Of a DNA stretch of 64,000 nt, positions 9,895-46,130 are shown in pieces. The notes under the pieces were generated by a model. That model ran no database searches and was not told where the DNA came from. It worked only from the letters and a program-made list of their open reading frames with translations. The stretch covers positions 74,898,001 to 74,962,000 of the forward strand of contig NW_024704742.1 of NCBI RefSeq assembly GCF_018977255.1, in the 5' to 3' direction. Within the stretch, counting starts at the first letter, position 1, and the number at the start of each line of letters is the position of its first letter. This stretch comes from Callorhinchus milii (lineage: Eukaryota). Position numbers and translations under genes: made by a program.

Positions 9895-10022
9895 CTTTCA
9901 GACCATCTTTCCGGGAGAAACTCATCAGGATGATCAAAATAATCAGGATCCCTATGGACAGCAAAGGCTATGAACATCACTGAATACCCTTTTGGAATTA
10001 TGTAACCACAGAGTGTAGTGTC
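9895..10022 (-). CDS. CYP16A1: CYP16-like coding exon 9 (PERW meander); gene continues toward or beyond the window start
   Basis: cttcttttcgcag|...AG|GTTTGT, 128 nt, phase 0 to 2; DTTLCGYIIPKGYSVMFIAFAVHRDPDYFDHPDEFLPERWSE. Confidence 0.95.
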
Positions 10023-11901
10023 CTGCGAAAAGAAGACCAGACTTACAATCTAGTTTGGTCAAAGAGTGACTTTTAAATTCATATGTTCATCTCTACAAAT
10101 CAGTATAGCTACAACACTGAAGTAACAAAGTTATTTTTCTTATTCTTCCAATATGAACAATATATGTATCAGCCTGGCACAGTTGGTAGCATTATCGCCT
10201 CAAATAATAATCCTTGCATTTGTTATAGCACCTTATAAGTCTTCGAGACATCTCAAAGTGCTTCACAGAATACACTTTAAAATGTTGTGTGGGCGAAACG
10301 CGGCAGCCAATCCCACAAACAGTTGTGGATTGAGTGACCAATTTATTATTATTGTTGTGATTTCAAGGTTGTGGTGCTGCAGGTGCCCAGCATCATCAGC
10401 ATTATCCTTCAGGTTACTTGTTAAACCAAGGTCCAGTCTGCCTGTTTAAGTGCATGTGAAAGATCCCATGGCACTATTCTCCAACAGTCCCCAGTTAAAT
10501 GGGGTCATTCACTTCATGGATGTCTGTGGGATATTGTTGTGCACAAATTGGCTTCCATGTTCACCCACAACACACACACAGTCAATGCACTACATGTCAG
10601 TGGCTGTTTTGTGCAAAGCAACTGACATCATCAGCAACCTGACAACTCAACAGTCAGTCATTATTTCTCACTTGCTTATAACACAACACATTTGCCCATG
10701 AAAGTGATTGCAGTTCACAATATATCCTCTGAAGCGCTTTGGGACATCCTCCTGACATGTAGAGCACTATACCAAATATAAGTATTATTTATTATATATT
10801 TATAGCACGGCCTCTGAGTTAATGGACCCAAACGACTGGGTTTGATAGGCCAAATGACCTGTGGTGTAACGTTTTATGAGTCAATGTTTATTTTCAAATG
10901 CAATTTTCCAGCAGGTAATTAGCACTGTGACAGCAAAATATATATGGGAAAACGGTGAGTAAGAACACAGCTCTCTCCTCAATGGGACCTGCCATAAAAA
11001 ATCATCCCATTCATCCTGATGAATGAAACAGTAATCCTCAACATCATTTTACAAGACAGCTTTTACTGGTGTTTACTAAGCTGACTTTTTTTCTCTCTGT
11101 ATCTTTCTCTTTGGCTCAGTCCCTGGCCCTCAATTTTCTCCTCAAGCTAATTAACAGACACAGATGGTGCATATTCCTCCTGGGAGTAAAATTGTAACAT
11201 TCTGCCAATTACTACCTGCAGATTCTCCTGCCTCTTGAAATACCACTATCAGTGGAAATACATACATAGATATGTGTAAAATATAATCTAGTAGTGAATA
11301 CCCACATCTCACCAGTTCTGGCCAGGCTCCACTGGCTCCCCATTGCCAAACGGATCGACTTCAAGATCCGCACACTTGTATTCAAATCTTTTCACTCTCT
11401 AGCACCTCCCTACCTCTCCGACCTCTGCTCGACTGGCACCGGCCTCCTGCTCATCCCTCGCACCCTCCACCCCACCATCGGAGGTCGCGCTTTCTGCCAC
11501 TATGCCCCAACACTCTGGAACACTAGGAATCCTGTAGCTCAGTGGTTAGAGCACTCGCTTTGCAAGCGAGAGACCCGAGTTCAATTCCAGGCAGGGCGAA
11601 ACCTTGGGCAAGTTTCCTTACTCCACACGCCTAATAATAATCCCTCCAACTTCTCACCAGCTGACCGAGTATCCACATGGCCAAAGATCCTAACAACCAT
11701 TATGCTCCAGAACGCTCAGACTAAGTCTCCTGCCAAGGAGAGATCCATCTTTGTTAACAAATATTAGCCAAATGTACTGGAAAATGTAAGAAACACATTG
11801 TGCAAATTTATACACTTCTTATTGATCTGATACAAGTAATCTGTATTCACCCTCAATTCAAGAAGGTTTGTGAGTCTGCTTGATTTAAATTAAAAAAATA
11901 C

Positions 11902-12012
11902 CTGTTTTGCGATTCTCCGTCCACCAATAAAAGAGGGCCAAAGTCTCTGGACCTCCAGCAGCACATTGTTCAGATAGTCTTCACTTTCTTGTGCACATTT
12001 ATGAATATGGAT
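11902..12012 (-). CDS. CYP16A1: CYP16-like coding exon 8 (K-helix ExxR)
   Basis: ccctactcag|...CAG|GTATTT, 111 nt, phase 0 to 0; IHIHKCAQESEDYLNNVLLEVQRLWPSFIGGRRIAKQ containing EVQR. Confidence 0.93.
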
Positions 12013-12339
12013 CTGAGTAGGGATAAAGTATGAGCAAATAGCAGCATCTTTCTACATTGTAAATAAATCAATGGGTGGAGCATGCATCTTTATTATTTAA
12101 CTATGAATGGTTTTAAGCATTGCATATAAAAAATTAGCATTCATATTTCCATCCCATATTGCTCTTAGTTCCAACTTTACATTATGTGGGAAATGTACTC
12201 GCATTGTGAGCATGGGATTTTAATATTACCGTTGGATCCAATTTAGAAATGATATAGAAACCACATGAATCACCAACCAGATGAATTCACACCAACAGTA
12301 GAACGGTCACGGTATAAGCAAAAGATTGCATCAAAAACC

Positions 12340-13050
12340 TTAATTTATGTAGCATATATCATGTAAGATAACATCCTTGACTGCTTCACAATTTTGAGCA
12401 AGAAAACATAGGTGAAGAGGTAGGTTTTTAGGCAGGATTTTAAAGCATAGAGAGGTGGAGGGAGGGAGTTCCAGAGTTTAGAGGACTAGTTGGTGAAAGC
12501 TCAGCCATTGATGCAAGCTTGAAAGGGACAGGGGACATCTAGAGGGCATGAGTTAGCTGAGCAGGAGTGAGCAGTAGTGTAGAAGATCACAGAGACAGGG
12601 AGATGCAAAATCATGAAGGGGATTATGAGCACCTTGAAGTCAATCCCTTGTGAGCTAGTGCAGCCTGGCAAGGATTGGGGCGATGGGAAAGTGAAGTTTG
12701 GTGTGGGTGAGGAATTTTGCTTCAGCTTTAGAACAGTGGAACGTCAAGGAGTGTATTTGGGAAGTTGAATTGGAAGATAAAGGCAAGAATGAGGGTTTTT
12801 AGCTGTGTTAGGTGTGAGGTAGGGGTGAAGGTGGACAATGTGGCAAAGATGAAGAAAAACAGTCTTGGCTTAGTAAGCTGGAGTGTGCATCTTTGGATGG
12901 TGATGCTGTAAGTGCCGAGATGTGGAGGTACTGATGGGAACCATTCAGGAGAGCCTCGGTCTTGTTGATGTTCAACTGAAGAAACTTAGCTCTCATCTTG
13001 GACTTGATGTCTGTCAGACATCAGTGAGTTTGATAGAGAGGCCAGGAAGG
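12340..13050 (-). mobile_element. Old L2 relic followed by a CR1 3' tail (about 13055-13260, minus strand)
   Basis: MRAKFLQLNINKTEALL; agaatcatagaatcctacagcacagaaggaggccatttggccc is the reverse-strand CR1 tail. Confidence 0.75.
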
Positions 13051-15109
13051 AGGAGAATCATAGAATCCTACAGCACAGAAGGAGGCCATTTGGCCCATCG
13101 TGTCTGTGCCAACTCTTTGAAAAGAGCTATCCAATTCAATCCCACTCTCCCGCGCTCTCCTCATAGCCCTGCAAACTTGTCCGCCCCAAATAATTATATA
13201 CTTCTCCCTTAAAAGTTAACTGAAAAGTTGTTATCGAATCGGCTGCCATCACCCATTCAGGCAGAGAAGGGCAGAGTGTCGGACTGCCTTGCTATAAAAT
13301 TTAAGATGGACTATAATTGTGAATAATTCCTAAAATCAGTCTTAATTGATTATTTTTAAGCACTGTGGAAAACTTATTTCCAAATTAAGTTTCTGTATGA
13401 TATTACATTTTAAGACAAAATGGTCCAATTGGCTAAGACTTGTTGAAATTTTGAGCCTCTGGAGAGCAAAGAGAAATGAAATTGCATACATTTTGCTTAT
13501 AGAGAGCAAATGTTTAGAAATTAGTTCACTTAACTTACACTATACGTAAGCTGAGTCCACATCATTATACGTTTTGTAGCTACCCCCACCCCCAACCAGA
13601 ATCTATAATTTGTACTGAGTCTGATGCTGTTTCTCAATTATCAGCCCCTAAAACAGATGATCTGAAAAAATCCCAAACTGTAACTGGAGGATTGAAGGGT
13701 TAAATTCTAATTAATCTTAGTCTATAAAGTACTACAAATAGACACTTGTCACAAAATCAGGGCCATGTTTTACACTAGAAATCAGAGCTTCAGAGCATCA
13801 CCATCTCACCACCAACTTCATTGCCATCTTCTGCTCCTCTATGACCTGGTATAAACTGACTTGTTATGTTGTATTCCTGCTGGTTAGTTTTAATTAGACA
13901 TTTGAATGGATGCTGATTGATTCTGCAGACAATCGGGGGATTGGTGTTCTTGTGCTCTGCTTCCTGCCAAGAGTGGGGGAAAGTCTAATTGATGATCGTT
14001 TGATTCTGATCCTAATTAAATTGCTTACATTTCTAGATTGACACTGTCTGGCTGATTGCTCTGAGGGGTTAGATGAGTTATTATTTTATTCATATAGCCG
14101 TTGTACTTTTTAATCCGTCAACAAGCACATGCATATTGATCTGCCGTGACTTTGACTTCTGTATTTCACAAAAAAAAATTAAAATTTGGTCACTCATTCC
14201 ACAAATTATATTTTTATGTGTGGAATCTTTAATGTCCACCTGATCATGCAGGTAACCTGGAATTCTTTATGACCTCATCTAAAATATTGTAAAACAAAGA
14301 TTGAGGAACAAAGTTTTAAGTAAGTCATCTGCATTGGTACATTAGGTCTTAGAGAGGGTGGCATTGGTGCCTGTTGAAGACATCGGGGAATGAAGGCACC
14401 AGTTTCCAGCATCAAAATCAGAGCATCTAACACTCTGTAGCTTCTATTTTAAGGCTATGAGGATTTCAACCCCCACTCTTCTGATCCAGAAGCAAGTGTG
14501 CTACCAACTGAGCCAAACAATCCGTTAGTTCCTGCAATTATGGTACTCAGGCTATTTGCCTTTCCTAGGGTTTCCTTTCCTGATTTGGCACGTGATCAAA
14601 TCTCAGAATCTTACAGGACAGAAATAGGCCCCTTGGTCTGTCAATTTTAAACTGGTGTTTTTCTCCACATGAACTATCCAATCTAATCCTGCTCGCTTAC
14701 TCACTCTCCATGCCCTTTCATTTTTTTCAAGCAACTATTAATTCCCTTTTAGAACAATAATAGGTGAACTTTGAGTCAACAACAGTTCACATTCCAACTA
14801 CCCTTGGTAGAAAGAATGTTTTTCTAACCTTGCCTTTAATTCTTTTTAAACTTTAAGTTTTGCCCTCTCATTACCAACTAGCAAAAGTAATTTATTACTA
14901 TTTTCCCTATAATAACCCTTCATTATCCTTTAAGAACTCTACCAAGTCTGTTCCAGTTCACAAAGCCTCTACAAATTCTTGCAGTTTGGTTTAACCATCA
15001 TTTCACCTTTCATCCGGACTCTGGCCAAATCTACTTTTCTTCACCTTTGCAACATTGCCCAATTCTATCACTTATCCCCAATGCAACTGAAACACTCATC
15101 ACCCATCCA

Positions 15110-17030
15110 ATAACAACTTGCACTTATATAGCACCCTCCAGTGTAGGGTCTCAGGGCGCTTAACAGTGGCGGAACCTGACTCCAAGCCGGGGGGGTGGTG
15201 GTGCGGGAGGTGGCCATAAGCTCAGTCGAAGAGGAAGGTTTTCAGGCGGGACTTGAAAAAGACAGAGGGATTGAGGGAGAGTGTTCCAGAGTTTCAGGGC
15301 ATAGTGGCTGAAAGGGCGACCTCCAATGGTGTGGCAGAGGGTGCGAGGGGCAAGCAGGAGGTTAGTGCCAGTTGAGCGGAGGCGCCGGGTGGTGGATAGG
15401 GGAGTGAGGAGGTCAGAGAGGTAGGGAGGTGCCAGAGAGTGAAGGGATTTGAACAAATGTGAGGATCTTGAAGTCGATCTGTTGGGTGATAAGGAGCCAA
15501 TGGAGCCTGGCCAGAACTGGTGAGATGTGGGTACGGAGTTTGGTTCGGGTCAGTAGGCAGGTGGCAGAATTCTGAATGAGCTGGAATTTTTGAATGGTGG
15601 AGCTGGGGAGACCGGCGAGGAGTGAGTTGGAGTAATCCAGGCGGGAGGTGACAAACCATTGGGGGTAAGGTACGGTCGGAGGCGGGCAATGTGGTGGAGG
15701 TGGAAGAAAGCGGTCCTGGTCAGGGACCAGATGTGGGGGAGGAAGGATAGTTTGGGGTCAACCGGATGCCGAGGTTGTACACTGGTTCGGTTATTCTGAG
15801 GGAGAGCCCAGGGATGTTGAGGAGTTGGGTAATGGGGAGACAGTGGAGTGAAGACGTTGACGGGAGCCAAGCAGTATGGCTTTCGTCTTTTCCATGTTCA
15901 GCTGCAGGAAATTTACACTCATCCAGGCCCTGATGTATGCCAGACAAGCTGATAGAACATCAGTGGACCTGGAGTTGGTACTGTAGGAGGTAAAGTAGAT
16001 TTGTGTGTCATCCACAAACATGTGTAAGGTTACCCCATATCTGGGGATGACATCACCCAGAGGGAGCATATAGATCATGAAAAGAAGGGGGCCAAGGATG
16101 GAGCCCTGGGGTACCCCGCAGGTGACCAGCCGGGGGCGTGAGGAGAAACCATTTGCCGAGATGAAATGGAGGCAGTTGGTTAAGTAGGACTTGAACCATG
16201 TGTGTGCAGTCCCACTAAGGTAGATGAGGGAGGAGAGGCGATGGAGGAAGATGATGTGGTAGACTGTTTCAAACGTGGCAGAGAGATCCAGGAGGATGAG
16301 AAGGCAGAGGGAGCCCTGGTCACAGATAGAGAGAATGTCATTTGTGACTTAGACAAGTGTGGTCTCTGTGTTGCAGGCAGAGCGAAAACCAGACTACAGG
16401 GGCTCGAAAAGAGAGTGGAGGGAGAGGTGTGACTGAAGTTGACCTGCAACAATGTGTTCCAGGATTTTGGAAGGACTTCAAGGAAGGGTAAATTGGAGTT
16501 GGGAGAGGGGGAGGGATAAACTAGAGGATATTGAGGGAGAGAAAGGAGGGATGGTAGAGGGTGAGGTGCTCAAAGAAGGAGAAACAACCAGAGGAATAGG
16601 GGGATAGACAAAGGGAAGCTTGGGAGCTGAGGGCCACCCCGCCGCCATGTTGGTTGGGGCGGGGGTTATGGTGAAGAGTGTAGCCAGGAGGGGAGGCTTC
16701 AATGAGGGGGACGGGGTCACTGGGGGAGAGCCAGGTTTCTGTAAGCCTAAGAATATAAATGTGCACATCCAGGATGAGGGCATGGATAGCAAGGGCTTTA
16801 TTGGAGAGGGAGTGGACATTTTGGAGGGAAATGCGGATAGATTTGCTGGTAGGGGGGAGGTGTTGAGGAGAGTGGTAGAGAGAGGATTTGGGATCGTGGG
16901 GGGGAAGCGACCATGGAGTTTGAGGAGCAGGCAATGTTGGGCAGGGTATGGATGAGGGAGGGGGAAGGGGTGTTTACCTTTTGGAGGCGGTTGCTGCGGA
17001 AAGAGTGAGGCAGAGAAATAAAAGGCAGAG
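15110..17030 (-). mobile_element. L2 LINE relic with internal deletions (endonuclease start, RT, 3' tail)
   Basis: ISLQNVHSLSNKA..LTETWL..GGGVAL; GVPQGSILGPLLFMIYMLPLG..DDTQIY..FLQLNMEKT; LHWLL..IDFKIL; tail ..tatataagtgcaagttgtt. Confidence 0.92.
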
Positions 17031-17442
17031 GAACAGAGGAACTGATGGGGAACAATCAATCAGATTTAGATCTTTCAGAAATTGCCAGAAGCTCACAGGT
17101 GCATGCAGTTTAATGTGAATTAACATAAAATAATTGGTGTGGAAACAAAGAAGCAACTTGAATTATTATAGTGCCTTATCACATAAAATTTCTCAAAACA
17201 CTTCACAGGTAATTACTGTTGAACATAGTGACTATTCCTCTATTAGGGCGAATAAGAGAAACCTACTATTCTCCAAGCCGGGGGAAAAGAAGAGGTAAAT
17301 CTGTTTAAAATTTTAAATGCCTCTATAAAATTTCTAGCTTATCTAATCATATTTTTTCTGGGGATCATTCTCATTGTTGTGCTCATTGCTCTACCTCTAA
17401 GGCAGACCCCTTCTGTTGCAGTGACCAGAACTGCATGCATTA

Positions 17443-17880
17443 CAACAGCAACAAGATTCCATTTATAGAGCGCCTTTCATGTCGGGAGGACATCCCAAGG
17501 CGCTGGACAGTTGGGTCAGGACCCGAGCAGGGGGGAAATGGTCAGGATGAGGGGAGGGAAGGGAGGGAGCGAGGAGGGGTAGAGAGTTGAGAGGGGAGCT
17601 GAAGGCTCGGTCAAAGAGAAAGGTCTTGAGACCGGCCTTGAAGGAGGAAAGGGAAGAGGCGGCGAAGGCACTGGGGGATGGAGTTCCAGAGCCTCGGGGC
17701 TGAGAGGCTGAAGGCCCGGCCACCGATGGTAGGGCGGTTGGGGCGGGGGATGTGGAGCAGACCGGAGCCAGAGGAACGGAGGGTACGGGCGGGTAGGTAG
17801 GGGGATAATAGGTCAGAGAGGTAGGAGGGAGCAAGGCTGTGAATGGCCTTGTAGGTGAGGATGAGGATCTTGAATTCGAT
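17443..17880 (-). mobile_element. Young L2 LINE 3' fragment
   Basis: Near-identical reverse complement of about 59145-59590. Confidence 0.92.
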
Positions 17881-18491
17881 TAGTCTAGGTGCAGCCTTAC
17901 CAGAGCACTATATAGCTCACGAGTACAACATCTTAGCCCAGCTGATTTGGTAATGTAGCCTAGCATCCTGTTTGCCTTATTTTTGGTGTTTCAACAGCTT
18001 TGACAGAAGTGGTTAGATTATAAAGCAGAGTCCATAAAGGGAATCAGAGAGATGGAGAAAAAGGAGAAATATTAAAAGGTATATGGGGAGCGACCAGTAC
18101 AGTGGAATTAGATTTGGTGGCTCTTGTGGAGAATGTGGACTTGATGGGCTGAATTGATTGTAATGTTATAGGAATCTGTGAAATGATCCGGTTGCTCAAC
18201 AGAAAAGAACAGTGGGGTGGCATGAATTTTTTCCTGCACTTAGACATTATAAATTTAGTAGTCGAAAATTTATGATTGCAAAGTATGTTTTTGGTAATAC
18301 TCTTGAACTGTTTAATGCTCAGTAAATTATTTCCATGTTTTCGATACGAATCAATTTAAAGCAAATTTCACAATGAAAAACATACAATAAAGCTTTGCAT
18401 AAATCTCCATGGAGCAATTTGTATAGTGACATGCTATGTGCAAAATCCCATAAGCCTAAATTCAAAATATTCCATTTACATTGTACATGAA

Positions 18492-18790
18492 AGGAGTCCT
18501 GTAGCTCAGTGGTTAGAGCTCTTGTCTCAAAAGCGAGAGACCTGGGTTTGATTCCCGGCAAAGCGAATTTGGGCAAATTTTCTTATTACACACGCCTGAT
18601 GACAATCCCTCAAGAAAAAAAACCAGTAAGTCTCTCAATCCACGACTGTTTGTTGGAGACTGCTGTGCAAATGGCTGTCGCGTTTCGCCCGCAAAATATA
18701 CAGTCAATTCACTTTATAATATATTCTGTGAAGCACTTTGAGATGTCTAGAAGTCGTAAAAAGTGCTATATCAAATGCAAGGATTATTAG
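18492..18790 (+). mobile_element. SINE, more diverged copy
   Basis: Same head and tail. Confidence 0.9.
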
Positions 18791-18865
18791 TAGTCGTAGT
18801 AGTATTATAAAAGCGGATTTGCTGCAAGATCCACTCGATTAGAAAAAATAGTTTCTTGGAACACT

Positions 18866-18882
18866 GTGGCCCCCTGCTGGTG
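18866..18882 (-). promoter_or_regulatory. Candidate CTCF site
   Basis: CACCAGCAGGGGGCCAC matches the core CCASYAGRKGGC. Confidence 0.45.
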
Positions 18883-19089
18883 AGAACCCAATACTCTACG
18901 CTGCAACATCAAAATTCTTACAATTTCCAGAGATCGATTGTTTTAAGGCCATCAAATTCTGGACTGTCTGGAGATGTTTTTTCAAGAAAATTTTCTTCGA
19001 AAAATAGACATCAAGGAAGATGTTTGCTATCTCAATAAATAAAAATGGCAAGGCTTTTCAAATCTCTTTCCAACTATGGTTACTGTAAA

Positions 19090-20464: not shown

Positions 20465-20609
20465 CTGGTTTGATCCAGCCAGTGCGAGGGTGAAAGAGGT
20501 CAGCAGGGAAGCCAGTGCCTTTGGAATCAGTGCCGAAATAAACAGGAGAAGGTGTTGTGTTGCACTGGTGTTTTCCGGGAAGGGTATGTTCTTTATTTTA
20601 TTGACAAAC
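20465..20609 (-). CDS. CYP16A1: CYP16-like coding exon 7 (I-helix)
   Basis: tttaaacag|...CAG|GTACAC, 145 nt, phase 2 to 0; FVNKIKNIPFPENTSATQHLLLFISALIPKALASLLTSFTLALAGSNQ. Confidence 0.9.
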
Positions 20610-23314: not shown

Positions 23315-23438
23315 CCATCTTCATCACTCTTAAGGCGTTCATTGATGATTTTTAATAGCTTTTCTTTAGCCTCTAGAGCCAGCGAAAATCCTGAAGTCCA
23401 CACAGGCACTTTCAGGTTGACAGGTGCAGAGATTAACC
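23315..23438 (-). CDS. CYP16A1: CYP16-like coding exon 6
   Basis: tttgattaacag|...|GTAAGC, 124 nt, phase 1 to 2; LISAPVNLKVPVWTSGFSLALEAKEKLLKIINERLKSDEDG (F/G helices). Confidence 0.9.
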
Positions 23439-24405: not shown

Positions 24406-24545
24406 CATGCCAATGTTGTGTTGTAAGCTGAATAATCTGTTTGGTGAGTGCTGCAGATTCCTCTGCGTCAACATTAAGAAAAAGTCCCAAGGACAGTTCT
24501 GTAGCCAAACGTTTGAACAGACGGTATATGGCAACAGGTTCACTA
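24406..24545 (-). CDS. CYP16A1: CYP16-like coding exon 5
   Basis: ttttctacag|...|GTAAGC, 140 nt, phase 2 to 1; SEPVAIYRLFKRLATELSLGLFLNVDAEESAALTKQIIQLTTQHWHG. Confidence 0.9.
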
Positions 24546-28242: not shown

Positions 28243-28278
28243 CTCAGCGCGAGGTCCCTCAGATTCCTCTCACATACC
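28243..28278 (-). CDS. CYP16A1: CYP16-like coding exon 4 (36-nt micro-exon)
   Basis: ttttacctccag|...|GTAAGA, phase 2 to 2; VCERNLRDLAL. Confidence 0.8.
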
Positions 28279-30585: not shown

Positions 30586-30592
30586 TACTATA

Positions 30593-31301: not shown

Positions 31302-31495
31302 TAGAAGAAGATAGAGGATAGAAGATAAATGCAATTTGTTGTTGTCAATTTATTCAGCAGTGTATATCAACAACAAAAAAACTCAGAGCAGATTAATGTG
31401 AACAGTGGAGATATGTTGTTTTCTACAGGAGCTCAATAAGATACCATAAAAGTCACCATTAAATTTATGTGATTAATATCTACAGAAAATCCTAC

Positions 31496-31580
31496 CTGTT
31501 AATGTAATCTCCATACGCATCTAGTGATTTCTCTTTAAACAGCTGCATGAGTGATAATCTCAATAAATGAGCTTCTTCTC
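31496..31580 (-). CDS. CYP16A1: CYP16-like coding exon 3
   Basis: ctgttcag|...|GTAGGA, 85 nt, phase 1 to 2; GEEAHLLRLSLMQLFKEKSLDAYGDYINR (C-helix region). Confidence 0.85.
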
Positions 31581-32171
31581 CTGAACAGATGTGGAAATGA
31601 TTAATTGAGAAAATATTTAAAAAGCCACCACCATTAGAGAGATTTATAACAATACGTAAAACATGTCACAAACAACGGGCTTAAATCTCAATAAGTTTTA
31701 CAAACTGAATCAATAACCTTAATCAATTAAAGCTATTGTTATTATATCATGCAAACTAATAGGCAAACAGCATCTTTACTAATGTTTGTCAGTTTGCTCT
31801 TTCTGCTTAAATACTTTACAGTGCATTTTCTTTTAAAATTCAACAAGTTTTTGTTTTCAATTGTTTAAACATACATTTTGTGAAGTCATTGTACATTTTT
31901 GTAGTCGAGAAGTGTATTGGAATATTAGACTTGTTGGCATGGCTGTGCACACACTAGCATTGTTATGGGTTTAAAGTGGACACAATTTGTTTTGTCTGAA
32001 AACGTGGGTTCTGTTGTGCTGGATGGAGAAGAGAGGGTTACAGAGATGCTCTCTACCTTGACTAAAAGTTCTGTCACTGTCCTTGCCTTGCTTATTTCCC
32101 CACTGGAAGTGTCCTGTTTTCCTCTACTGGGGCAGCTTGTGGTAAGAAGGAACTTATTTTTCAAGTGATTC

Positions 32172-33515
32172 GACAACAACAACAACTTGGATTTATATAG
32201 CGCCCTCCACGCCGGACGGTGACTTAGAGCGCTTCACAGTAACAGATCCGGGGCTCCAAGCCAGTGGGAGGGGGAGGAAGGTGACCAAAGGCGCGATCGA
32301 AAGGAAAGGTCTTCAGCCGAGACCTGAAAATAAGAAGAGAGGGAGCAAGGCGAAGGGAGTGAGGAAGGGATTTCCTGAGCTTCGGGGCATAGTAGCTGAA
32401 GGCACGGCCGCCGAGGGTGGAGCGGAGGACTCGGGGGACAAGGAGGAGGCCAGACCCGGTGGAACGAAGGCAACGGCCACTGTTGTGAGGAGGAGGTCAG
32501 AGAGTTAGGGGCGTACAGAGGAGTGGAGGAATTTGAAGACAAGGGTGAGGATCTTGAAGTTGATCCTCTCTGGGACAAGCAGCCAATGCAGTCTGGGAAG
32601 GACTGGGGTAATCCAGGAGCGGAGTTTGATGCGGGTAAGAATGCGGGCGGCAGAGTTTTGTATGACCTGGATTTTATGGACGGTAGTGGTGGGGAAACTG
32701 GCAAAGAGGGCATTAGAATAGTCCAGCCGAGAGGTGACAAAGGCATGGACCAGGGTTTCAGTGGATTCATTAAGACGGGGTCCAGGTTACAACAACAACT
32801 TGCACTTAAAAAGCACCCATTACACAGGGTAGTGTCTCAGAGCGCTTAACAGTAGTGGAGCCTGATTCCAAGCGGGGTGGGGGTGTGGTGGGAGGTGACC
32901 GTAAGCACAGTCGAAAATAATAATAATAATCCTTGAATTTGATATAGCGCTTTTCACATCGGGAGGACGTCCCAAAGCGCTTCACAGAATACACTGTAAA
33001 GTGAATTGACTGTATATTTGTGGGCGAACTTGGCAGAATTGCGCAGAGCAATGTCCCACAAACAGTCATAGATTGAAAATGACCAATTTTTACTATTGTT
33101 TTGGTTTTTGGAGGGATTATTATTAGGCGTGTGGAGTAAGGAAACTTGCCCAAGGTTTCGCCCTGCCTGGAATTGAACTCAGGTCTCTCGCTTGCAAAGC
33201 AAGTGCTCTAACCACTGAGCTACAGGACTCCACAAAAGGAAGGTTTTCTGGCGGGACTTGAAAAAGGGGAGAGAGGGGGCAAGGGATTGATGGAGTGTTC
33301 CAGAGCTTCGGGGCACGGTGGCTGAATGTGCGACCCCCACTGATGGAGCAGAGGTCATGAGGGACAAGCAGGAGGCTGGTGCCAGTCGAGCAGAGGCACC
33401 ATTTGGTTTATTGGGGAGTGAGGAAGATCGGAGAGTTAGGGAGGTGCCATGGAGTGAAGGGATTTGAAAACGAGTGTGAGGATCTTGAAGTCGATCTGTT
33501 TGATGATGGAGAGCC
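32172..33515 (-). mobile_element. Two adjacent L2 3' fragments; the second is interrupted by a SINE at 32915-33232
   Basis: LHWL..RINFKIL motifs and two tails beginning at about 32172 and 32788. Confidence 0.85.
32915..33232 (-). mobile_element. Full-length young SINE
   Basis: Same family sequence. Confidence 0.95.
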
Positions 33516-34321
33516 AGTTACCTGGTATTTTTTCAGTCCAGCCAGAAGCCAAAGATCATTCCTCCTGATTTGAGGAAAAAATGCATTTCAGTCATCCGCT
33601 TGCCAAAAGCTGTGATTTGCGGTTCTCTTTTGCAGCTTACGAGATAAATATTTGATAGCAGTGGGCTTTGCAAATTCTCAAGTTTGGAAAAGATGCATAA
33701 AAGAGCATTGTTCAGTCTCTTTAGTCTAGATGTTTTGTGGAATATCAACCCAAACAAGAATTCTTCTACCTCTGAACACCTGCTGATATTTGCAGAGTCA
33801 TGAAGCAAACGCATATCAGGGCCAAACCCATCATACCTCTGTTTGGTTTGGCTATTTTTAAGCACAGTGATGGGTTTCCACATGAGTCAGACACCCGGCT
33901 GCTCCCAAGACTAAAGGTTATACGTTCAAGTGTTCTCGGAGCTGCCAACAAATATATGTCATTGTTTACTGGTAAATAAGAATAATATGGCCAGAACTTT
34001 AAAGTGCTCTTGTCAATCCTCACTGTTCTGACTTTACCTTTCAAAAATATTTACTAAAGTAGTGCATGTAAACTGGAAGGTAAGAGAAAGAAAGTATTAA
34101 TTTGGATCTAATCTTGGTTAGTTACCTGGTTAGTTTTGTGTGAGAGCTATTTCACTCCAAAGAGCTTTTGTGTGATTCATAATGACTTTGCACTTTCTAA
34201 AGATATCAAGCAGCACTAACAAAAATGATAATTGGATTTCAAATTCAGATCGTTCTTCAGTGATAGAAGAAATATCGTATGATATTATAATTTCAACACA
34301 GTCTACATAAGAACTTTACTA

Positions 34322-35123
34322 CAGTGAAACTCTGATAACTCACCTCTAGGATAAGTTCCATCAACCTCACATAACTCATCACTCATCAATATTCCAGCTG
34401 TTTAACTTAAGAAATGTTAATTATGATTTCTTGGATAACTTGTCACTCTGGATATAATGTGTTAAGTTTTCACACTTTTAAGACAGTGCTTCCATGTAAA
34501 ATACCTCTGATAACTCATCAATTGAAAAAGCAAATCCATAGTTGCAACAGGACTACTGGGCACTTTATACTTGGTTGCAACTGTGGATATGCAACTTATG
34601 ATTGTATGGCAAACAAAGATTATTCTGTGTCTGTGTCATTTTTGCTGTGCATTGTGTTATTAGCTTGCAATTGATGTATCCATACAGTTAATGTATACCA
34701 ATTACTGCAATTGTTTGCTCCTATTCAGTTTCTTGCATCGTATGAGTTAAATGTCTTAAAGATTTACGCAAGCATTTTAAATTTAAAAAAACTTAAATTT
34801 AGAAACTTCTTTCTCACACCAATTCAAATACCCACACACATGTTTGGTCGGGATAACAATATCTAATTTTATATTCAGTTAAATATCTTATGCCATGTAT
34901 TGGGTATTCAAATAAATAATACAGTATATATGCATTTTGAATGATAAAGTGTTTATTTATCAGTGGCTATGCCAATTATTAAATAAAGCACTGATATAGA
35001 GTAGCCCACATACACTATGGCTAATAGCAATGATACTTTGGATAACTCGTCAGCTCTGATAAGTCATAATTTAAGCTATCTCTCTTAGGGTAATGAGAGT
35101 TATCAGTTATCAGAATTTCACTG
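34322..35123. mobile_element. Non-autonomous Tc1/mariner-pogo (Tigger-like) DNA transposon
   Basis: TIRs CAGTGAAACTCTGATAACT and AGTTATCAGAATTTCACTG (18/19 match), TA on both flanks, internal GATAACT subrepeats, no transposase ORF. Confidence 0.8.
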
Positions 35124-36084
35124 TATTCTTTGGTACACAGTAAAATAACTAAAAAAAGTAACTAAAGTTCTAGGAAATACATAAAGTTCAAGAGAACAGA
35201 AATTTACAAATTTACAATTTATTGATACAATTTATGAGCAGCAATTAACACAAAAGAAACAGTTCACTGATGTAAGAAGAAAACTGAAGTGTAGAATCTA
35301 GGGTTCAGATTTAAGTTGGGGCTGAATACGATTGAATGAATATTGTGTAAAAGTACTAATAACCAAAATCAGTACAACTGTCTTTGTGTAAGCTGTTGAA
35401 GTATAATTCTTAAATAATTTCCATAAGTCAACATTAACACACTCTGCAGCCAATTTTTTGAGTTAAAGTTCAGTGCAAGAGCTTTCACCTTTATTGGATT
35501 CTTTGAAGAAATAATAGATAAACAAGCAAAACACAGTGCCTGTGCTATATATGGACTTCCAGAAGGCTTTTAATAAGGTGCTATACATGAGACTCACAAC
35601 TAAAATCTAGCTATATGGAGTCAAGGAAAAGATAGCAGAGTGGATTGAGATGGTGTGGGAGTTGGGATCCAGAATGCCATAATGTTTGTGAGGGAGTTTT
35701 GTAGGCGCTTGACTGAGGAGGAAAGGTCTTGTTTGGAGGAGGAGGGGTCCTGTGGGTGGGGCAGGAGTATGGATTACTCAAGAGCAGCAGAGAAGGAATG
35801 GCAGGGTGGTGGGGGGGGGGCAAATTCCTTTCGGGGCAGGAGACAATAGAGGGTTGGGTGGCAGGGAGAAGTTGAGGGAAATATTCCTGTGCTGGTGAGA
35901 GAAGAAGCTTATATTTGAGTTCAGTGGAATAATACTGAAAATACTTCATAATTTTAATTCAAAAATAGTTAGTAAACCAGTAAATAAAGATAGTAAACTT
36001 TAAGAATGTTTCTACTGAACAGGAAATCACAGACCAGTCACGTTAGCATTGTTTATGGGCAAGGCTTTTAGCACAACTAAATAA

Positions 36085-37190
36085 ACTAGTCACTTGGAGA
36101 AAGAGAATATAATTAAGAACAGCCAGCATGGACTTACAAAAATAGGTCATGCTTGACAAACCTTATCAAATTGTTTGAAGATGTAACCAGTAAAATAGAT
36201 GAGGGAAATGCGGTGGATGTAGCCTATCTGAATTTCCATAAGGCCTTTGATAAAGTGCCATATGAGAGGCTCATAACTAAAACAGGGGCATGTAGAAACA
36301 TAGGAAAAGTAGCAGAATGGATTAAAGAACAGTTAGGAAACCGAAAGCAAAAGGTAGGAGTTAAGGGCATCATCTCAGGATGGCAAGAAGTAGAAAGTGG
36401 TGTTCCATAGCGATCTGTGTTGGGACCGCTACTGTTCTAATATGCATATATCATCTGGATTCAGGTTTTGTAGGGTCAAAATTTGCTAATGACACCAACT
36501 TGGGCCTGAGGGTTGGTAAACAGTGAATCAGATTGCAAAAGAATGCAGGAAGACATAAACAGGCTAACAGAATGGGCAATTAGATGGCCAATTACGTTTA
36601 ATGTAGGAAAATTGCAAAGTAATTCACTTCGGCAGGAAAAATAAAGAAGCCGTCTATAATCCAGATGGTAGGAACCCAAGAGGAATAGAGGAGCAAAGAG
36701 ATTTGGAAATTCAGATCCATAACTCTCTAAAACTAGCTACACGGGTAGATAGGGCTATAAAAGGCCAATAGAGTCTTGAATGAGGACTCTATCCAGTGGA
36801 TAGAATACAAACGTGAGTAGGTGATTTTGAATTCATGCAAAACTTTATTTAGGCCACATTTGGAGTATTATGTCCAATTCTGCAGTCTCCACACTACAAG
36901 GATATAGCAGTGATGGAAAAAGTACAGCATAGATTTACTAGGATGATACCAGGGCTGGCAGGTAACTGATATCAGGATAGACTGAATAGGTTTGGCCTTT
37001 TTTTAAAACTAAAGAAGAAATCTTTGAGATGGGCCTAATGGAGGCATTTAAAATTATAAAAGAATTTGATAAGGTTAACATAAATAGGCTGTTTCCCTGG
37101 CTCGGGAAACCGTAACCAGGGGACACAAGCATAACACAGCGACTAGGGGATCTAAGATAATTTAGGAGGTATTTACTTCATGCAAAGATA
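36085..37190 (+). mobile_element. Older CR1 LINE ORF2 relic
   Basis: LTNLIKLFEDVTSKIDEGNAVDVAYLNFHKAFDKVP..SGVP with many stops. Confidence 0.9.
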
Positions 37191-38084
37191 GGGGTGCCAC
37201 CTCCTAGACTCAAAAATACTGGCCACAGACTCAAAAGGCACATCCTCGTTGACCCTCCACAATTCACTGGGCACCCTGCTACATAGCACTTCTCCTCTCA
37301 GGACTTTGACTTATTTCCTTGAGCACAGTACATTAAACCATGGGACCTTCAATGTGCAGCTTGAATAAATAGAATGTTAGACACCAGAACCATAATTTGA
37401 ATGCTCCAGACCCATCCTGTACACGCAATCTCACCTCACCTGAAAAAAAATGGCAATTACATTTTTCACTGGCACTGCTGAGATTGTGTAATTCGCAGCC
37501 TAAAGCAATGGTTGAATCAGATAGTGTATTTGCATTCAAGAGGAAGCTATATCTACACATCAGGGAAAGGAGAACAGAAGAGATTGGGAGGAGTAAGGAG
37601 TCGGTGGAGAATCATGTGGACTGTAAACAACAGGAATGGCCTATTTCCATGCCATACATTCTTTGTAAATCTTTGAACAGAGGGGGGGCATGTGGCACTC
37701 CACCCAAGCAAAGAACTTTGAATTACTTGAAATCAAGAAAAAACTTTGTAAGTAGGGAATTTAGAACAATATCGTTGGAGAATTGTGTACAAGGCTTATA
37801 GATATAGTTAGCAGGAAACGATTTAAGAAAATTATAACATAGCAAGTCTAAGTCTTTTCAGATTTTAGTTTGGAACCTTAAGTTTCTTGGCAACAATGTG
37901 GGATAAAGCGGTTAAACTGGTTTCCCACAGCTCAACCGAGAAATTGTTAACAATAATAATTTGATAATTCTTGCTTTTGATATAGTGCCTCATCACGTCT
38001 TCTAGACGTCTCAAAGCGCTTCACAGAATATACTGTGAAGTGAATTGACTGTATATTTTGTGAGCGAAACGCATCAGCCAATTG

Positions 38085-38600
38085 AAGGGAATGGACAGGT
38101 TGATATGGGGTCAACAGGTCAGAGGTAGGAAGGGGCAAGGCCATGGAGGGCCTTGAAGGCAAGGATTTTGAACTGTATCCTCTGAGGAATGGGGAGCCAC
38201 TGGAGCCAGGCGAGGGAGGGGGTAATGGGGTCACGGAGCCTGGTGCAGAAGAGGACACAAACTGCAGAGTTCTGGATGATCTGCAGCTTGTGGAGGGAAA
38301 AATGGGAAGGCCGACAAAAACACGGTGTTGGTGTAGTTGAGCCAGATGTGATGAATACATGGATGAGGGTTTCGGCGGCCTGAGGGGTGAGGCAGTGGTG
38401 GAGCCGGCCGATGTTGCGGAGCTGGGGGAAAGCAGAACGGTTTATAACACGGACATGGGGTAGAAAGGATAGTTGAGGGTCAAACAAAACCCCAAGGTTC
38501 CAGACTGGCTCAGTGAGGTGGAGTGTGCAGCCATGGATGGTGATTCTGTCAATGCCTGATGTGTGGAGATGCTGATGGGAGTCAATCAGGAGAACTTTGG
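38085..38600 (-). mobile_element. L2 LINE fragment
   Basis: FDPQLSFLPHVR..LRNIGRL..AAETLIHVFITS..FKALHGLAPSYL. Confidence 0.88.
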
Positions 38601-38737
38601 TCTTGGACTCAGGGACCTAGTATTGGATTCCAATGAGGATGATGAGATAAGTATTGAGACCACTGACAAGGTAAGATAAACAAATGTAGAGATCCCACAT
38701 GAGTTGAGCCAGAAACAATACAGTTTAAGTGTATCAC

Positions 38738-39046
38738 AATAATAATAATAATCCTTGCATTTGATATAGTACTTTTCACGTCTTCTAGACATCTCAAAGC
38801 GCTTCACAGAGTATACTGTAAATATTGACCGTATATTTGTGAGCGAAACGCGGCAGCCAGTTGCACACAGCAGTGTCCCACAAACAGTCATGGATTGAAA
38901 ATGACCAATTTTTTTATTGTTTTGGAGGGATTATTATCAGGCGTGAGGTGTAAGGAAACGTGCCCAAGGTTTCGCCCTGCCTGGAATTGAATCCAGGTGT
39001 CTCGCTTGCAAAGCGAGTGCTCTAACAACTGAGCTACAGGACTCCA
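38738..39046 (-). mobile_element. Full-length SINE
   Basis: Same family sequence. Confidence 0.93.
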
Positions 39047-39759
39047 CAATGGAGAAGACATGAGGTTACCAGTTACGCCATGGTATTCAGGGACTCATCA
39101 ATGTTTGTGGACAAGAAGATCTGCAAGGAAGATAACATAAATAAGGCTGTATATGGCAAAGATTGTGATATAAAAATAAGGTCAGATGAAATTATGAGGG
39201 AAAGTTAATCCAGTCGTAGCGACAGATTACATCATAGAAAGAAGATCTGAGAGTTAAGCAAGAAGCTGTGGGGCTGGTGAGGAGTTTTGAAGAGAATGGG
39301 GAATGGTGCTGGTGTCTGGGTTACTATCTGTATTATCCAGGAGTATGGATAAACGAGCAAGAGAGTCGCTTCAACAACTGGTTAGGGAGAGTGTGTGTGC
39401 AGAAGGGAATCAAGTTTGTGGATAACCCGGAAATATTTTGTAGCAAAGTGTCTATAGGAAAAATGTGTTCACCTAACTAAATGAGGAGCTACACTGTTGG
39501 TACAAACATAGAAGCAGCAATTGTGGTTCATTCAAACTAGATTTGGAAGGGGTGGGGGGGAAGCTTTGGTTGAAAAAGAGCTCTGGCATGCTGACTACCA
39601 GGAAGAGACAAGTAAAGTTGAAATTATTATAAAACAAAAAATACGGAAAATACCTAAAAGGGCAAGAATCCCCAAAAGCAACAGATAACAAGACTCGGAA
39701 ACTGATAGGAAAGTTAAAGGGGTAAAGGGTAACAATTAGATGCATAACTAAATGCTAGA

Positions 39760-40750
39760 AGTATCTGAAATAAAATGATAGAGTTTGGTGCCATCTGCAT
39801 ACGTATGGAAGTTAACCCCATGTCTGCAGACGATGTTACCAAGGGGGAGCATATAGATATTGAAAAGGAGGTGGCCAAAGATCGTGAAAGTTGAACTGAG
39901 AGGGGAGGCAGTGGAGGAGGATAGCATAGTCAACAGTGTTGAGAGTAGCAGAGAGGTCAAGAAGGATGAGGAGGCAAAATGTTGTTTGTGATCTTGACTA
40001 AGGCTGTTTCTGTACTATGGGCAGTGCGGAAACACAATTGAAGGGGTTTGTAAGGGAGTGGTGGGAGAGGAAGGAGCAAAGCTGGGAAGCAACAATTTGT
40101 TCGATGACCTTGGAAAGAAAGGGTTGGTTGGAGATGCTTCGGTAATTTGAGAGCAGGGATGGGTCCAGGGAGTTTTTTTTTGAGGAATAGGGGTGATGAT
40201 GGCTGTTTTTTAAGCGGGTAGGAATAGTGGTCGAGATTAAGCACAGGTTAATGTCTGTTAATGGAGAAGCAAGGAGGTGGAGCAGGGAGGTAAGGAGAGG
40301 GGTAGGGATAGGGGTCTAGGAAGTAGGTGGTGGGCTTCATTTTGGACATGGAGATGCGAGGAGAGGGAGACAGGATAGAAGGTGTGGAGGGAGGGAATAG
40401 GTTGGGGCTGTAGTGTGACAGGGAGGTGGAGAGGGGGTAGGGGTACGGAAGGCAGAAGTAGCAGCCAAGTGTATCCCCTCGATTTTGGTCTTGAGAAAGT
40501 CCGGCATCTCCTCGCGATTGGAGTTGGGGATGGCTAAGGCCAAGGAGATGGAGTAGAAGGACAATTTAGTGGAGTCGAGGGTGGAGCATTAGATTTTGAT
40601 GTGGTCCAGCCAGATCTGTCAATGGATCATTAGGTAGGATTTCAGCCAGGTGCCATGACCTAGGAATGACCAAGTTGGGTAGGCTGTTGGAGGAGAAAGC
40701 CCAGGAATTCAGATGATTCCATGGCAGCAGAGAGGGAGTTGGGGAGGGTA
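39760..40750 (-). mobile_element. Degenerate L2 ORF2 relic
   Basis: HSTETALVKITNNIL; LLFNIYMLPLGNIVCRHGVNFHTYADGTKLY. Confidence 0.85.
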
Positions 40751-41556
40751 ATTATTTACAATTTTTTTTCCAACCTGTAGTATACTTTAGGTATGCAAAC
40801 TTCAGAGTATGAGGGCTGAGCTAAAAGATATAGACTGGGAGGCATTACTCAAGCACAAATCAACTGAGGATCAATGGACATTGTTAAGGAATATTCTACA
40901 GTGCATGCAGGACAAGTTTATACCCAAGTGCAGCAGGGAAAAATAAACAAAAACACACTAAAATGTATCAATAGGAAAATAAGAAATAAAGAAAGGGAAG
41001 ATTTAATAAGCGGGAAAAAATAGAATCTAATTCATATTCATCATTCTAAAAAAAATTGACCAAAAGTTTTGCTGTTTATTAATCCATGCAGCATTTAATT
41101 TGGACAAATTTATTAACCAAATGTAGTTAAAACAAATCTTCAAGTACATACAATAATCATACTCTGATTATGGGATTATCATATCTGCAGTCTGAAGCAT
41201 TTTTCAATATTTAAGAAATAATTACCTTTTAGGATAGTGGGGGTAATGTTTTTCTAATAACTAGATTTTCACTTTATGCTCTACTGAGATCATATCCTGT
41301 GATTTCATAACTTTAATGTAGTTACACTGTTTTCTTCAAATAAATACTATAGGGAACATACCATTACAGAAGCAGATGGTGTCTCCAAACAGCTTACACA
41401 TAGAAGCAGTATAGGCCGTGTCAAAAACATTGACTTTTTCTGTAAAATAGTGACACATATGATGCTGTGGATACCCCAGAGTGATCATTCACCTTCAGTG
41501 TTCTTCAGACATATTTTACATTAATACTGTTTTTATTTACAACTGTTCTATCTTAC

Positions 41557-41634
41557 CATTTGTTGTTACTAGATTGGCACCATATAACTGATGTAAAACC
41601 GTAGAAGGATCCTTTGCAAATATTGACATTTTAT
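41557..41634 (-). CDS. CYP16A1: CYP16-like coding exon 2
   Basis: ttttgcag|...|GTAAGA, 78 nt, phase 1 to 1; DKMSIFAKDPSTVLHQLYGANLVTTNG. Confidence 0.85.
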
Positions 41635-42224
41635 CTGCAAAAGCAATTTGTTAGAACTCCAGATTAAAATGGATTAAATTATGCATATAGACATTCTAGC
41701 AAGTCATTCAAAAACACACAGTTCAGGGAAGCTTGTGTAGTTGCACAGAGTGACCTCATAGAATTGTCAATGAATTATGCCAAAACAATCATAGCATTTT
41801 ATATACATTACCCACTGAACACAATAACCTTGCTTCTGGTTACCTTTATACAAACACAATGCAAACATCTACCAAAAATAGGAACAATTAAAGACTCAAA
41901 AAATCATTATGGTACATCAAATACACATCATCAAGTAGATCATAACAATTGGTGCTGCTTAGTTCAACGCTGCATATAAATCCAGGTTGATAAATACTTT
42001 TCATGATGTATATATGGACCTTGCTTATTAGCGTAATGTGTTACTTCATATTGCAATGAGGTGCTCATTCTGTTATAGCGCTATATCCAATGCAAAGATT
42101 AATTTTAAATTATATTCATGACCTGATTTTCAGGCACATTTTCAGATGACACCAAGTTGGGAGGAGGTGGGTAGGTGGGGTGGGGGAAGACTGTGGAATC
42201 AAAGGAGGCAGCAAAGACATCTGT

Positions 42225-42560
42225 GTGTCAGCCTGGTCCAGTTGGAATCACTCTCGCCTCTGAGTCAAAAGGTTGTGGATTCAAGCCTATGTTGGGACTT
42301 TGAACTTGCATGCTACTCCAATACAATACTGAGAGTGCTACATGTAGAAAGAGAAGCAAGTTTCTCCGAGTGTCTTGTCAACATTTTACAAGTGAAAATT
42401 GGTTATTCACTTCATGGCTGTTTGTGGGACATTGCTGTGAGCAAAATTGACTGCTACGTTCACAACCAAAAATACACTGTCAATAAATTCGCAGAATATC
42501 CTGTGAAATGCTTTGAGATGGTTTCTTGACATGAAAGGTGCTATACCAAACGCAAGGAAA
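42225..42560 (+). mobile_element. Ancient Deu-domain (SacSINE/AmnSINE-like) SINE relic; similar relics at about 2700-2990, 10180-10790 and 21690-22015
   Basis: cactctcgcctctgagtca..aggttgtggattcaag head; the related relics carry aaaccaaggtc..tctgcctg..aaagatcccatggcactatt; recognised by eye. Confidence 0.6.
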
Positions 42561-42568
42561 AATCAGAA

Positions 42569-42601
<33 letters not shown>

Positions 42602-44200
42602 CACCTTCAGGATATAGACCAGTAGATTGATTCAAGAGATGGCAGATTAAATATCATACTTACAGTAAAGTATGAGCTAATAGATTTTTGGAGGAAGAAT
42701 AAGGAGACCAAATATGATAAATGGTAACATTTTGAAAGGATTTGGAGAGCAGAGAGAGTGGGTTAAAATATACAAATCCTTAAAGGTGAAAAAGCTGTGA
42801 AGAAAGCTAATGGGATCCTAGGTTTTATAAACAAGGGTATAGAATATAAAACAAAACAGTTGATGTTTAAATTGTACAAATTGTGAGTTAGACCAGAGTT
42901 AGAGTATTGTGCCTAGTTTTGGTCCCTCCACTTTAGGAAGGATGTCAAAGCTATAGAGAGGGTGCAGAGGAAAATGCAGGTAAATGGAACTGAAAGTATT
43001 GCTCTTAAAAGAGACAGCACAGATACTATGGGCCAATTGACCTTCTTCTGTGTTATACATTTATAATGATAAATAATAATCCTTACATTTGGTATGGAGT
43101 CTTTCACATCAGGAGGACATCTCAAAGAGCTTCACGGGATGCAATATAAAGTGTGCATGTAGTTGTTTCAGTTCATTGAACAGATTTTCATTTTTGAGAC
43201 TTACTTCAGGGAAGCCCAAAGAAATACTAAAATGATTCTCCATTTAATGAGTAAATACTGTATAAAGTAGCAACATTTATTTTCATCAGCCAGGCATCTA
43301 AATCCATTACGATGCTTAAAATTCTCCAAACTAAGCGTTGTGAGTTTTCCACATATGCATTTTTTCCATTAGCCTAGTATGCAGTGCACACTCTCACCCT
43401 GGACACACATTGCTAACCTAATCCAAATAATTTAGGGGCAAATTAGCAGGAGTCAAGCATTAAGAACCCCCAAATTAATAATAATAAAAATAATAATCCT
43501 TGGATTTCATTTTGCCCCTTATCGCGTCTCCGAGATGTCTCAAAGCACTTCACAGAATATACGGTAAAGTGAATTGACTGTGTTTTGCAGGAAAAATGCA
43601 GCAGCCATTTACACAGAGCAGTGTCCCAGAAACAGTTCTGGATTGAGAGGCCAAAATTTGTTAATTTATTTATTGTTTTGAAGGGATATTAACCCCAGAA
43701 AAGCCAACAACAACAACAATAGAGTTGCTACTTACTGCTGGGTAGACAAGGAAACTTGCCCAATGTTTCGTCCTGCCCGGGAATCGAACCCAGGTCCTCT
43801 CGCTTGCGAGGCGAGTGGTCAAATCAGTAAGTTATGGGACTCCATGCTACAGAGTACTGTGGTTATAAACAAACATTATAGGAAACAATACTTGAATAGA
43901 GAACAGAAAATCCTCTTGAAGCACCAATCAGAAATAATGCTTTCATGAGGCTGGGGATTTCAAAACTGAATGCAACAATAAGTAGATATTAATTAAAAAA
44001 ACAAAATCATTCAATTGTAGCAATAGTTCTGATACACTAAAGTTTGCATCTTACCCAATAGGAATCAAGGATTCTGTGAGCATCGTTCAATGATTCAATA
44101 AGAATTGTTTTCACCAGATAAGTATAATGATAGCTTGTGGGACATAATCTTACAATGTGGTACTTTTTGTCCACTCTAACTGCAAAATAAGTTTACTTAC

Positions 44201-44390
44201 CACACAACATTTCTTTCATCCCTTTCACAGAGCATACAAATACAGTTGGTTTGTTGAGGAGACGTGCTTGGAAAACTCTGCTCCCAGTGTTGTGGATTCG
44301 GCTAGTGCAAAAATTCACAGGATCCTTATAAAACTCCATTGATTTATCACTCATTAAAGCAAATCCTGAACTGCCAGGAATATGAGACAT
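44201..44390 (-). CDS. CYP16A1: CYP16/CYP120-like cytochrome P450, first coding exon (exon begins at acceptor 44418; ATG at 44390)
   Basis: Encodes MSHIPGSSGFALMSDKSMEFYKDPVNFCTSRIHNTGSRVFQARLLNKPTVFVCSVKGMKEMLC, a P450 N-terminal pattern. Acceptor cccttttcag; in-frame TAA/TGA upstream of the ATG; donor G|GTAAGT (phase 1). Family name is from recognition, not a database search. Confidence 0.9.

Positions 44391-45826: not shown

Positions 45827-45857
<31 letters not shown>

Positions 45858-46090: not shown

Positions 46091-46130
<40 letters not shown>

Follow-up and report, generated by a model that had tools for sequence, protein, structure and literature searches.

What kind of enzyme is specified by a cytochrome P450 gene when most of its exons are missing from a list of open reading frames (ORFs)? 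The question is posed by a 64,000-nucleotide stretch of the elephant shark, Callorhinchus milii (contig NW_024704742.1; the whole stretch analysed is hereafter termed the window), in which an original prediction, drawn from the letters alone, had placed an apparently intact orphan P450 resembling CYP16 and CYP120. By tblastn and splice-site inspection, ten coding exons of a CYP16 gene were located on the minus strand inside the window (Table 1). Nine of these join from the ATG at 44390 to position 9895 into 1037 nt, comprising 345 codons and 0 stops with either of two copies of exon 2 (2a and 2b); all introns are GT-AG, and the P450 motifs EVQR (ExxR, at 11955) and PERW (at 9914) are encoded. 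Inclusion of both copies yields 371 codons and inclusion of neither 319, both readings again being stop-free. Exon joining bore out the nine in-phase GT-AG exons, the 345 stop-free codons, and the two motifs that had been predicted, although as a total for the locus nine was too low, the tandem exon 2 making ten. The duplicated exon 2, an absent membrane anchor, and an altered I helix were overlooked at the time, and the orphan gene at this locus, although known and annotated, has a testable architecture that has apparently gone unremarked.

Translations containing 2a, 2b, or neither copy showed 0 differences from the RefSeq proteins XP_007890111.2, XP_007890112.2, and XP_007890115.2, respectively, so the gene is already annotated, under the label "beta-amyrin 11-oxidase," and the novelty lies in the interpretation rather than in the gene or its isoform models. 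The description of the gene as largely hidden therefore holds for the ORF track and not for annotation. In the coding frame, ORFs of at least 60 residues opening with ATG, GTG, or TTG cover just exon 1 (65 residues) and exon 7 (77 residues), in agreement with the two exons previously recognized in the ORF list, a pattern attributable to a cut-off of at least 60 residues if the list used one. The RefSeq isoforms match Pfam family PF00067 (E 9e-41 and 3e-38), the elephant-shark protein has 421 residues, and the models extend past the window into the heme-ligand cysteine motif. Motif scans and a relaxed tblastn search with the C-terminal 81 residues returned noise only from positions 1 to 9894; since the RefSeq models do contain the heme-cysteine exon, it must sit beyond the left end of the window, behind an intron 9 of >9.8 kb. 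Splicing was seen in a 629-nt contig (contig 9) of sequencing run X2, runs X1 to X3 being RNA by guess and X4 DNA-like. This contig aligned in three pieces (44419–44201, 41634–41556, and 31579–31495) with 0 mismatches, joining exon 1 to 2a to exon 3 and leaving out 2b, which supplies the spliced evidence that had been proposed as a check, on the guess that the run is RNA; run X4 instead gave an unspliced contig spanning 40833–42276, across both copies. A pseudogene reading was dropped because the RefSeq models of the same sequence contain the heme-cysteine exon and the gene is spliced. Nor is the exon set a chance product: a 45%-identical outgroup protein (P0124) matched six exons at 45 to 73 bits, far above the best of 50 shuffles (27.3 bits).

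P450s are conventionally assigned to one family at >40% identity and to one subfamily at 55%. The 2a isoform was 60.9% identical over 414 residues to a medaka protein, P0046, whose link to the name CYP16A1 is indirect because it was paired with OcuCYP16A1 by length and mass only (438 residues and 49.32 kDa agree, while the isoelectric point is 6.34 as computed and 6.76 in the published list). Alignment by eye with an incomplete sequence of Nematostella vectensis CYP16D1 gave 19/21 identical residues in the I helix and 18/21 in the K helix. In contrast, identity to CYP120A1 was 25%, and identities to CYP26-like rows were 26% (P0241, whose nearest Atlas model cluster is "cytochrome P450 26B1-like," with a template modeling score of 0.95) and 29% (P0263, the tree sister of P0241), all below the family threshold, even though CYP26 hydroxylases were the nearest animal relatives among the representative matches. 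A quick maximum-likelihood tree of 52 rows separated a 36-row CYP16 clade from CYP26-like, cyanobacterial-type, and plant-type rows, with a Shimodaira–Hasegawa-like approximate likelihood ratio test (SH-aLRT) support of 100. Judged by identity and phylogeny, the elephant-shark gene is CYP16, not CYP26 or CYP120, and the locus is almost certainly an intact orthologue of CYP16A1. The original prediction was right that the gene is intact, spliced, a CYP16, and an orphan, given the RefSeq match, the spliced contig, the CYP16D1 motifs, and a statement in PMC11184212 that CYP16 has unknown function. Its CYP120-like label did not survive the 25% identity, nor its CYP26-clan placement the separate clade and the present assignment of CYP16 to its own clan 16 in PMC8110760, whose own tree groups CYP16 with clan 26.

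The family also proved not to be confined to vertebrates. Named clade members among 20 representatives looked up included sponges, a hydrozoan, a sea urchin, a snail, a horseshoe crab, two choanoflagellates, and Mesostigma, and one more relative was named from a priapulid. Relatives thus extend over sponges, cnidarians, molluscs, echinoderms, chelicerates, choanoflagellates, and a green alga. Three anchor-less, lysine-bearing P450s (P0149, P0152, and P0156) belong to Mesostigma and the two choanoflagellates, indicating that the clan is older than animals. CYP16 is described in the literature as lost in mammals and zebrafish, and no tetrapod name occurred among the 122 fish-level matches listed (252 found in total). 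A single pattern for the same I helix gave 31 matches in prokaryotic species genomes, none of them confirmed, which does not by itself establish absence from prokaryotes. One relative, P0275 from Tachypleus (822 residues), carries ∼400 unrelated residues ahead of the P450 start and looks like a mis-joined gene model.

Microsomal P450s normally carry an N-terminal membrane anchor. Hydropathy of any N-terminal 19-residue segment exceeded 1.6 in 0/122 fish records (maximum 1.1) and 0/35 diverse clan rows, as compared to 1.85 to 2.71 in four anchored control P450s. An anchor contributed by an upstream exon was ruled out for the RNA-supported acceptor, because two in-frame stops (TAA and TGA) precede the ATG at 44390 in exon 1. 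Nematostella CYP16D1, as given in the supplement of PMC8110760, begins at the same proline-glycine motif, likewise with no anchor; CYP16D1 and the CYP16A1 proteins of medaka and fugu share with the elephant-shark protein the anchor-less N terminus, near-identical I- and K-helix motifs, and a length of ∼420 to 440 residues. From these sequences, elephant-shark CYP16 would be cytosolic or only peripherally membrane-bound.

The I helix departs from the P450 norm in a different manner. HMMER placed Pro247-Lys248-Ala249, which directly follows a two-residue insertion, opposite His-Glu-Thr of CYP120A1, such that the acid-alcohol pair, the proton relay of P450s (PMC11842817), is replaced by Lys-Ala. 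The motif [IV]PK[AG] was found in 119/122 fish records, the misses being two records without the region and one in which the motif follows a neighbouring substitution, and Lys248 was present in 35/35 clan rows, a constancy equal to that of Glu286 and Arg289 of ExxR and of the heme cysteine, Cys364. In the AlphaFold model (mean predicted local distance difference test score 92.7), the I helix is broken at 242–244. The heme loop is more conventional, with RxCxG retained and Phe or Tyr seven residues before the heme cysteine in 33/35 clan rows; among fish records this residue was Phe in 96/122, Leu in 17, and Gln in 4, the motif being missing in 5. The four Gln records (P0075, P0088, P0103, and P0116) are from eels, and either Gln or Leu at this position could shift the heme potential.

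The best fold match was CYP120A1 of Synechocystis (PDB 2ve3; Z 41.9, root-mean-square deviation 2.6 Å, 398 residues aligned), also the nearest solved sequence (E 6e-25) and the source of the fish label "putative cytochrome P450 120"; CYP90B1 followed closely (Z 40.3), and CYP725A4 was also among the closest folds listed. CYP74 and CYP152 were absent among the fold matches listed, which excludes neither. Since the top match in both sequence and fold is a retinoic-acid-bound enzyme, and CYP16 groups with clan 26 in the tree cited above, elephant-shark CYP16 could be an ordinary enzyme of the CYP26 or CYP120A1 kind, hydroxylating retinoids or terpenoids with NADPH and O2, with Lys248 in a structural role. 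This is quite improbable given identities of just 25 to 29%, the separate clade, the nearly equal CYP90B1 match, and the HE[TN] residues kept by CYP120A1 and by CYP26-like rows (as AGHET-type or AAHEN-type helices) but missing throughout the CYP16 clade. The retinoid-related function first suggested retains CYP120A1 as closest solved structure, but is weak in view of the low identity and the missing catalytic pair that CYP120A1 and CYP26 share. A parallel for the altered helix is offered by the CYP152 peroxygenases, in which the acid-alcohol pair is replaced by a carboxylate-binding Arg-Pro (PMC5818669). Both families place a basic residue at the acid position beside a proline, although Arg-Pro and Pro-Lys-Ala are analogous rather than identical, a close sequence relation was not seen, and CYP152 is missing the heme-loop Phe that CYP16 retains.

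The second departure concerns exon 2. In the predicted model, residues 64–90, encoded by this exon, form a short strand, a helix (75–81), and a loop into a long helix (90–104), a B'-helix/B-C-loop segment that we take to be substrate recognition site 1 (SRS-1) in the usual P450 nomenclature. The two copies are equal in length and phase and share 35/78 bases and 5/25 residues; within the swapped 26 residues, exon choice changes, for example, position 73 (Pro or Tyr) and position 87 (Thr or Phe). In CYP74 enzymes, which require no O2 or partner, one SRS-1 residue toggles the product (PMC10813956). The Phe/Thr difference at position 87 is reminiscent of this F/L toggle, and, together with an acid-alcohol pair absent from both families and the missing anchor of CYP16, is consistent with a CYP74-like hydroperoxide isomerase or lyase that would convert fatty-acid hydroperoxides to oxylipins without O2 or reductase, its product changed by the exon swap. 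Such an enzyme appears rather unlikely here, as the heme loop of CYP16 is still canonical, both Phe and RxCxG being retained, and the closest folds listed are those of CYP120A1, CYP90B1, and CYP725A4. We also know of no role for an invariant lysine in CYP74 chemistry.

Distribution of the two copies was followed in 90 chondrichthyan records from 22 named species plus three Logan-sourced skate-cluster records, the cluster listings being partial. Records carried 2b only (29), 2a only (22), both (21), or neither (18, some of them truncated models), and among the species examined 2b occurred in 22/22 and 2a in 17/22. Each copy is used alone in single records: 2a in contig 9 of run X2 and in V9KTV1, 2b in RefSeq isoform X2 and in the three skate-cluster records. 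Among C. milii records 0/10 contained both exons, and a skip isoform is modelled. All frames being open and both-exon models existing, 2a and 2b are shown to be alternative paralogous cassette exons; strict mutual exclusivity (never both, never neither) does not hold among the chondrichthyan gene models. Between chimaera and elasmobranchs, identity was 70% for 2a (8 comparisons) and 75% for 2b (9 comparisons), as compared to 70 to 79% for other exons. Of 93 ray-finned fish records, 88 had the 2a motif and 0 the 2b motif, the exon being skipped or mis-modelled in 5. Parsed fish exon 2 peptides were nearer to 2a in 68/68 cases and outgroup peptides nearer to 2b in 19/27, and in a tree of the 25-residue peptides 2a and the fish exon were joined with an ultrafast bootstrap of 96, which carries moderate weight given the short alignment. 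Four metagenome loci of invertebrate type with introns each had a single 78-nt exon at the equivalent position. Six candidates, all chondrichthyan, were obtained when the 2b region was used in a word search, which was too insensitive to exclude 2b from bony vertebrates. The duplication likely predates the split of cartilaginous and bony fish, because both copies are conserved in sharks and rays, ray-finned fish records show 2a only, and the one exon of invertebrates is similar to 2b; the simplest history from these comparisons would be an early duplication after which 2a diverged, while in ray-finned fish 2b was either lost or left unannotated.

The duplication might instead have no effect on specificity, with one copy working per tissue or species and the both and neither forms amounting to splicing noise. 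That all four combinations are in frame and found among gene models fits such an account, as does the single type in ray-finned fish, but conservation of both copies at the level of constitutive exons and the use of each alone in transcript-derived records make it very doubtful. One gene probably makes two enzymes by exon choice, and it is likely that both exon 2 isoforms are functional and different.

This arrangement resembles that of human CYP4F3A and CYP4F3B, in which one P450 gene uses two alternative paralogous exons near the N terminus, 27% identical in the swapped segments as compared to 20% for 2a and 2b; there, the swap changes tissue and substrate (PMC3022543, PMC9658179, and PMC12784423). 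CYP4F3 differs in belonging to another clan, in its independent origin, and in exchanging residues 67–114 (A helix, beta1, and B helix), whereas in CYP16 the exchanged part is the 26-residue B'-helix/B-C loop, and both-exon and neither-exon models exist. CYP4F3 is the sole similar P450 case that we found in print, termed special among human P450s by its authors.

The best explanation for these features, although we put it at somewhat less than an even chance, is an anchor-less oxygenase in which an anionic lipid is held by Lys248 and the pocket is retuned by exon choice. The enzyme would be cytosolic or peripherally bound to membranes. Invariant Lys248, following Pro247, would take the acid position of the broken I helix in place of the acid-alcohol relay and would bind the carboxylate of its substrate, either a fatty acid or an acid of isoprenoid/retinoid type, so as to keep it above the heme. 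The substrate itself may then aid proton delivery or peroxide activation, as with Arg242 in CYP152, the oxidant being either O2 with a soluble reductase or H2O2. Through the choice between 2a and 2b, a single gene would yield a pair of enzymes that differ in their pockets. A lysine-anchored anionic substrate, taken by itself and by analogy to CYP152, comes close to an even chance.

Several observations weigh against this explanation. The heme-loop Phe, which peroxygenases lack (PMC5818669), is kept, favouring ordinary reductase-driven over pure peroxygenase chemistry. The register of Lys248 comes from one sequence alignment with an adjacent two-residue gap, so that its side chain may face away from the heme. 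Nor is the choice of exon strictly exclusive, since the 21 both-exon and 18 neither-exon models counted above are each spread over 13/22 chondrichthyan species. An exon 1-2b-exon 3 junction in C. milii was not found among the joints listed, an uninformative result as repeats dominated that listing. Read depth in run X2 was 3.23 in the bin with 2b versus 0.05 in the next bin below, a weak hint only.

A family that is strongly conserved between sponges and fish and has lost the anchor and both residues of the proton relay could also consist of soluble heme-thiolate proteins that are no oxygenases at all but bind a ligand or act reductively (e.g., on nitric oxide or peroxide), with the distal lysine tuning the heme. 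A duplicated and long-retained substrate-recognition loop suggests organic substrates instead, and a reductive reaction has no positive evidence, making this possibility most unlikely. Extended to the whole family, the idea becomes one of a soluble P450 class of ancient eukaryotic origin whose non-canonical catalytic centre is built on lysine, peroxygenase or hydroperoxide-rearranging, running from choanoflagellates and algae to fish, its exon duplicated in early jawed vertebrates so that chondrichthyans would have two specificities and ray-finned fish the new copy only; in this full form the reading is unlikely.

Orphan status is thereby turned into concrete tests. Soluble expression is expected without engineering, Lys248 is an obvious residue to mutate, and a single panel can distinguish between modes driven by peroxide, by hydroperoxide, and by a reductase. 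In 2a and 2b, nature has set up a pocket-swapping experiment, apparently kept since before the split of cartilaginous and bony fish >400 million years ago. No description of a CYP16 substrate, of the missing anchor, of the I-helix lysine, or of the duplicated exon was found in the literature searched, although the first two of these features may be noted by Nelson et al. 2013 and Dermauw et al. 2020.

Table 1 Exons of the elephant-shark CYP16 gene within the window, in order of transcription. UTR, untranslated region.
Feature	Position	Strand	Content	Basis
Candidate non-coding first exon	48662..48844	-	GC-rich island; ends at consensus donor G|GTGAGT beside satellite	Position inferred
Exon 1 (first coding)	44201..44418	-	Acceptor 44418; 28 nt 5' UTR with in-frame TAA and TGA; ATG 44390; residues 1-63, beginning right at proline-glycine motif without membrane anchor	Spliced contig 44419-44201
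Exon 2a	41557..41634	-	B'-helix/B-C loop; 78 nt, phase 1-1; derived type, shared with ray-finned fish	Joined exon 1-2a-exon 3 in run X2 contig 9; RefSeq X1; UniRef V9KTV1
Exon 2b	41362..41439	-	78 nt, phase 1-1; lies 117 nt downstream of its paralogue 2a; ancestral-like type	RefSeq X2; three Logan-sourced skate-cluster records with 2b alone
Exon 3	31496..31580	-	85 nt; C helix region	Spliced contig
Exon 4	28243..28278	-	36 nt	
Exon 5	24406..24545	-	140 nt; E and F helices; invariant Tyr137	
Exon 6	23315..23438	-	124 nt; F-G loop, G helix	
Exon 7	20465..20609	-	145 nt; I helix; ALIPKA replacing AGHET-type motif; Pro247, Lys248, Ala249	
Exon 8	11902..12012	-	111 nt; K helix, EVQR	
Exon 9	9895..10022	-	128 nt; meander, PERW; then intron >9.8 kb, heme-cysteine exon(s) outside window	

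At the 5' end, the spliced contig of run X2 extended beyond exon 1 by 183 nt, which found no placement on 31400–44480, and we infer that this part is a non-coding first exon. A GC-rich island at 48640–49000 (59% GC, CpG observed/expected 0.6) includes a minus-strand consensus donor (48662) and is likely to hold the promoter and the candidate first exon. A 3.1-kb satellite at 45518–48639, comprising ∼104 copies of a 28- to 30-nt unit based on CA runs, lies between exon 1 and this candidate and so probably within a 5' UTR intron. On expression elsewhere, "putative cytochrome P450 120" is listed as expressed in a salmon gill table. The exon 5 acceptor (24548–24543) is a tandem CAG-TAG; at this point a single serine distinguishes the catshark models P0015 and P0017, which suggests a conserved NAGNAG choice. 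No Pfam match above the cut-off was obtained for flanking ORFs (127/135 scanned). Around 30% of the window is repeated within it, and reverse-transcriptase fragments (Pfam RVT_1) of long interspersed nuclear element-type elements are present at 50955–51599 on the plus strand and 15791–16348 on the minus strand.

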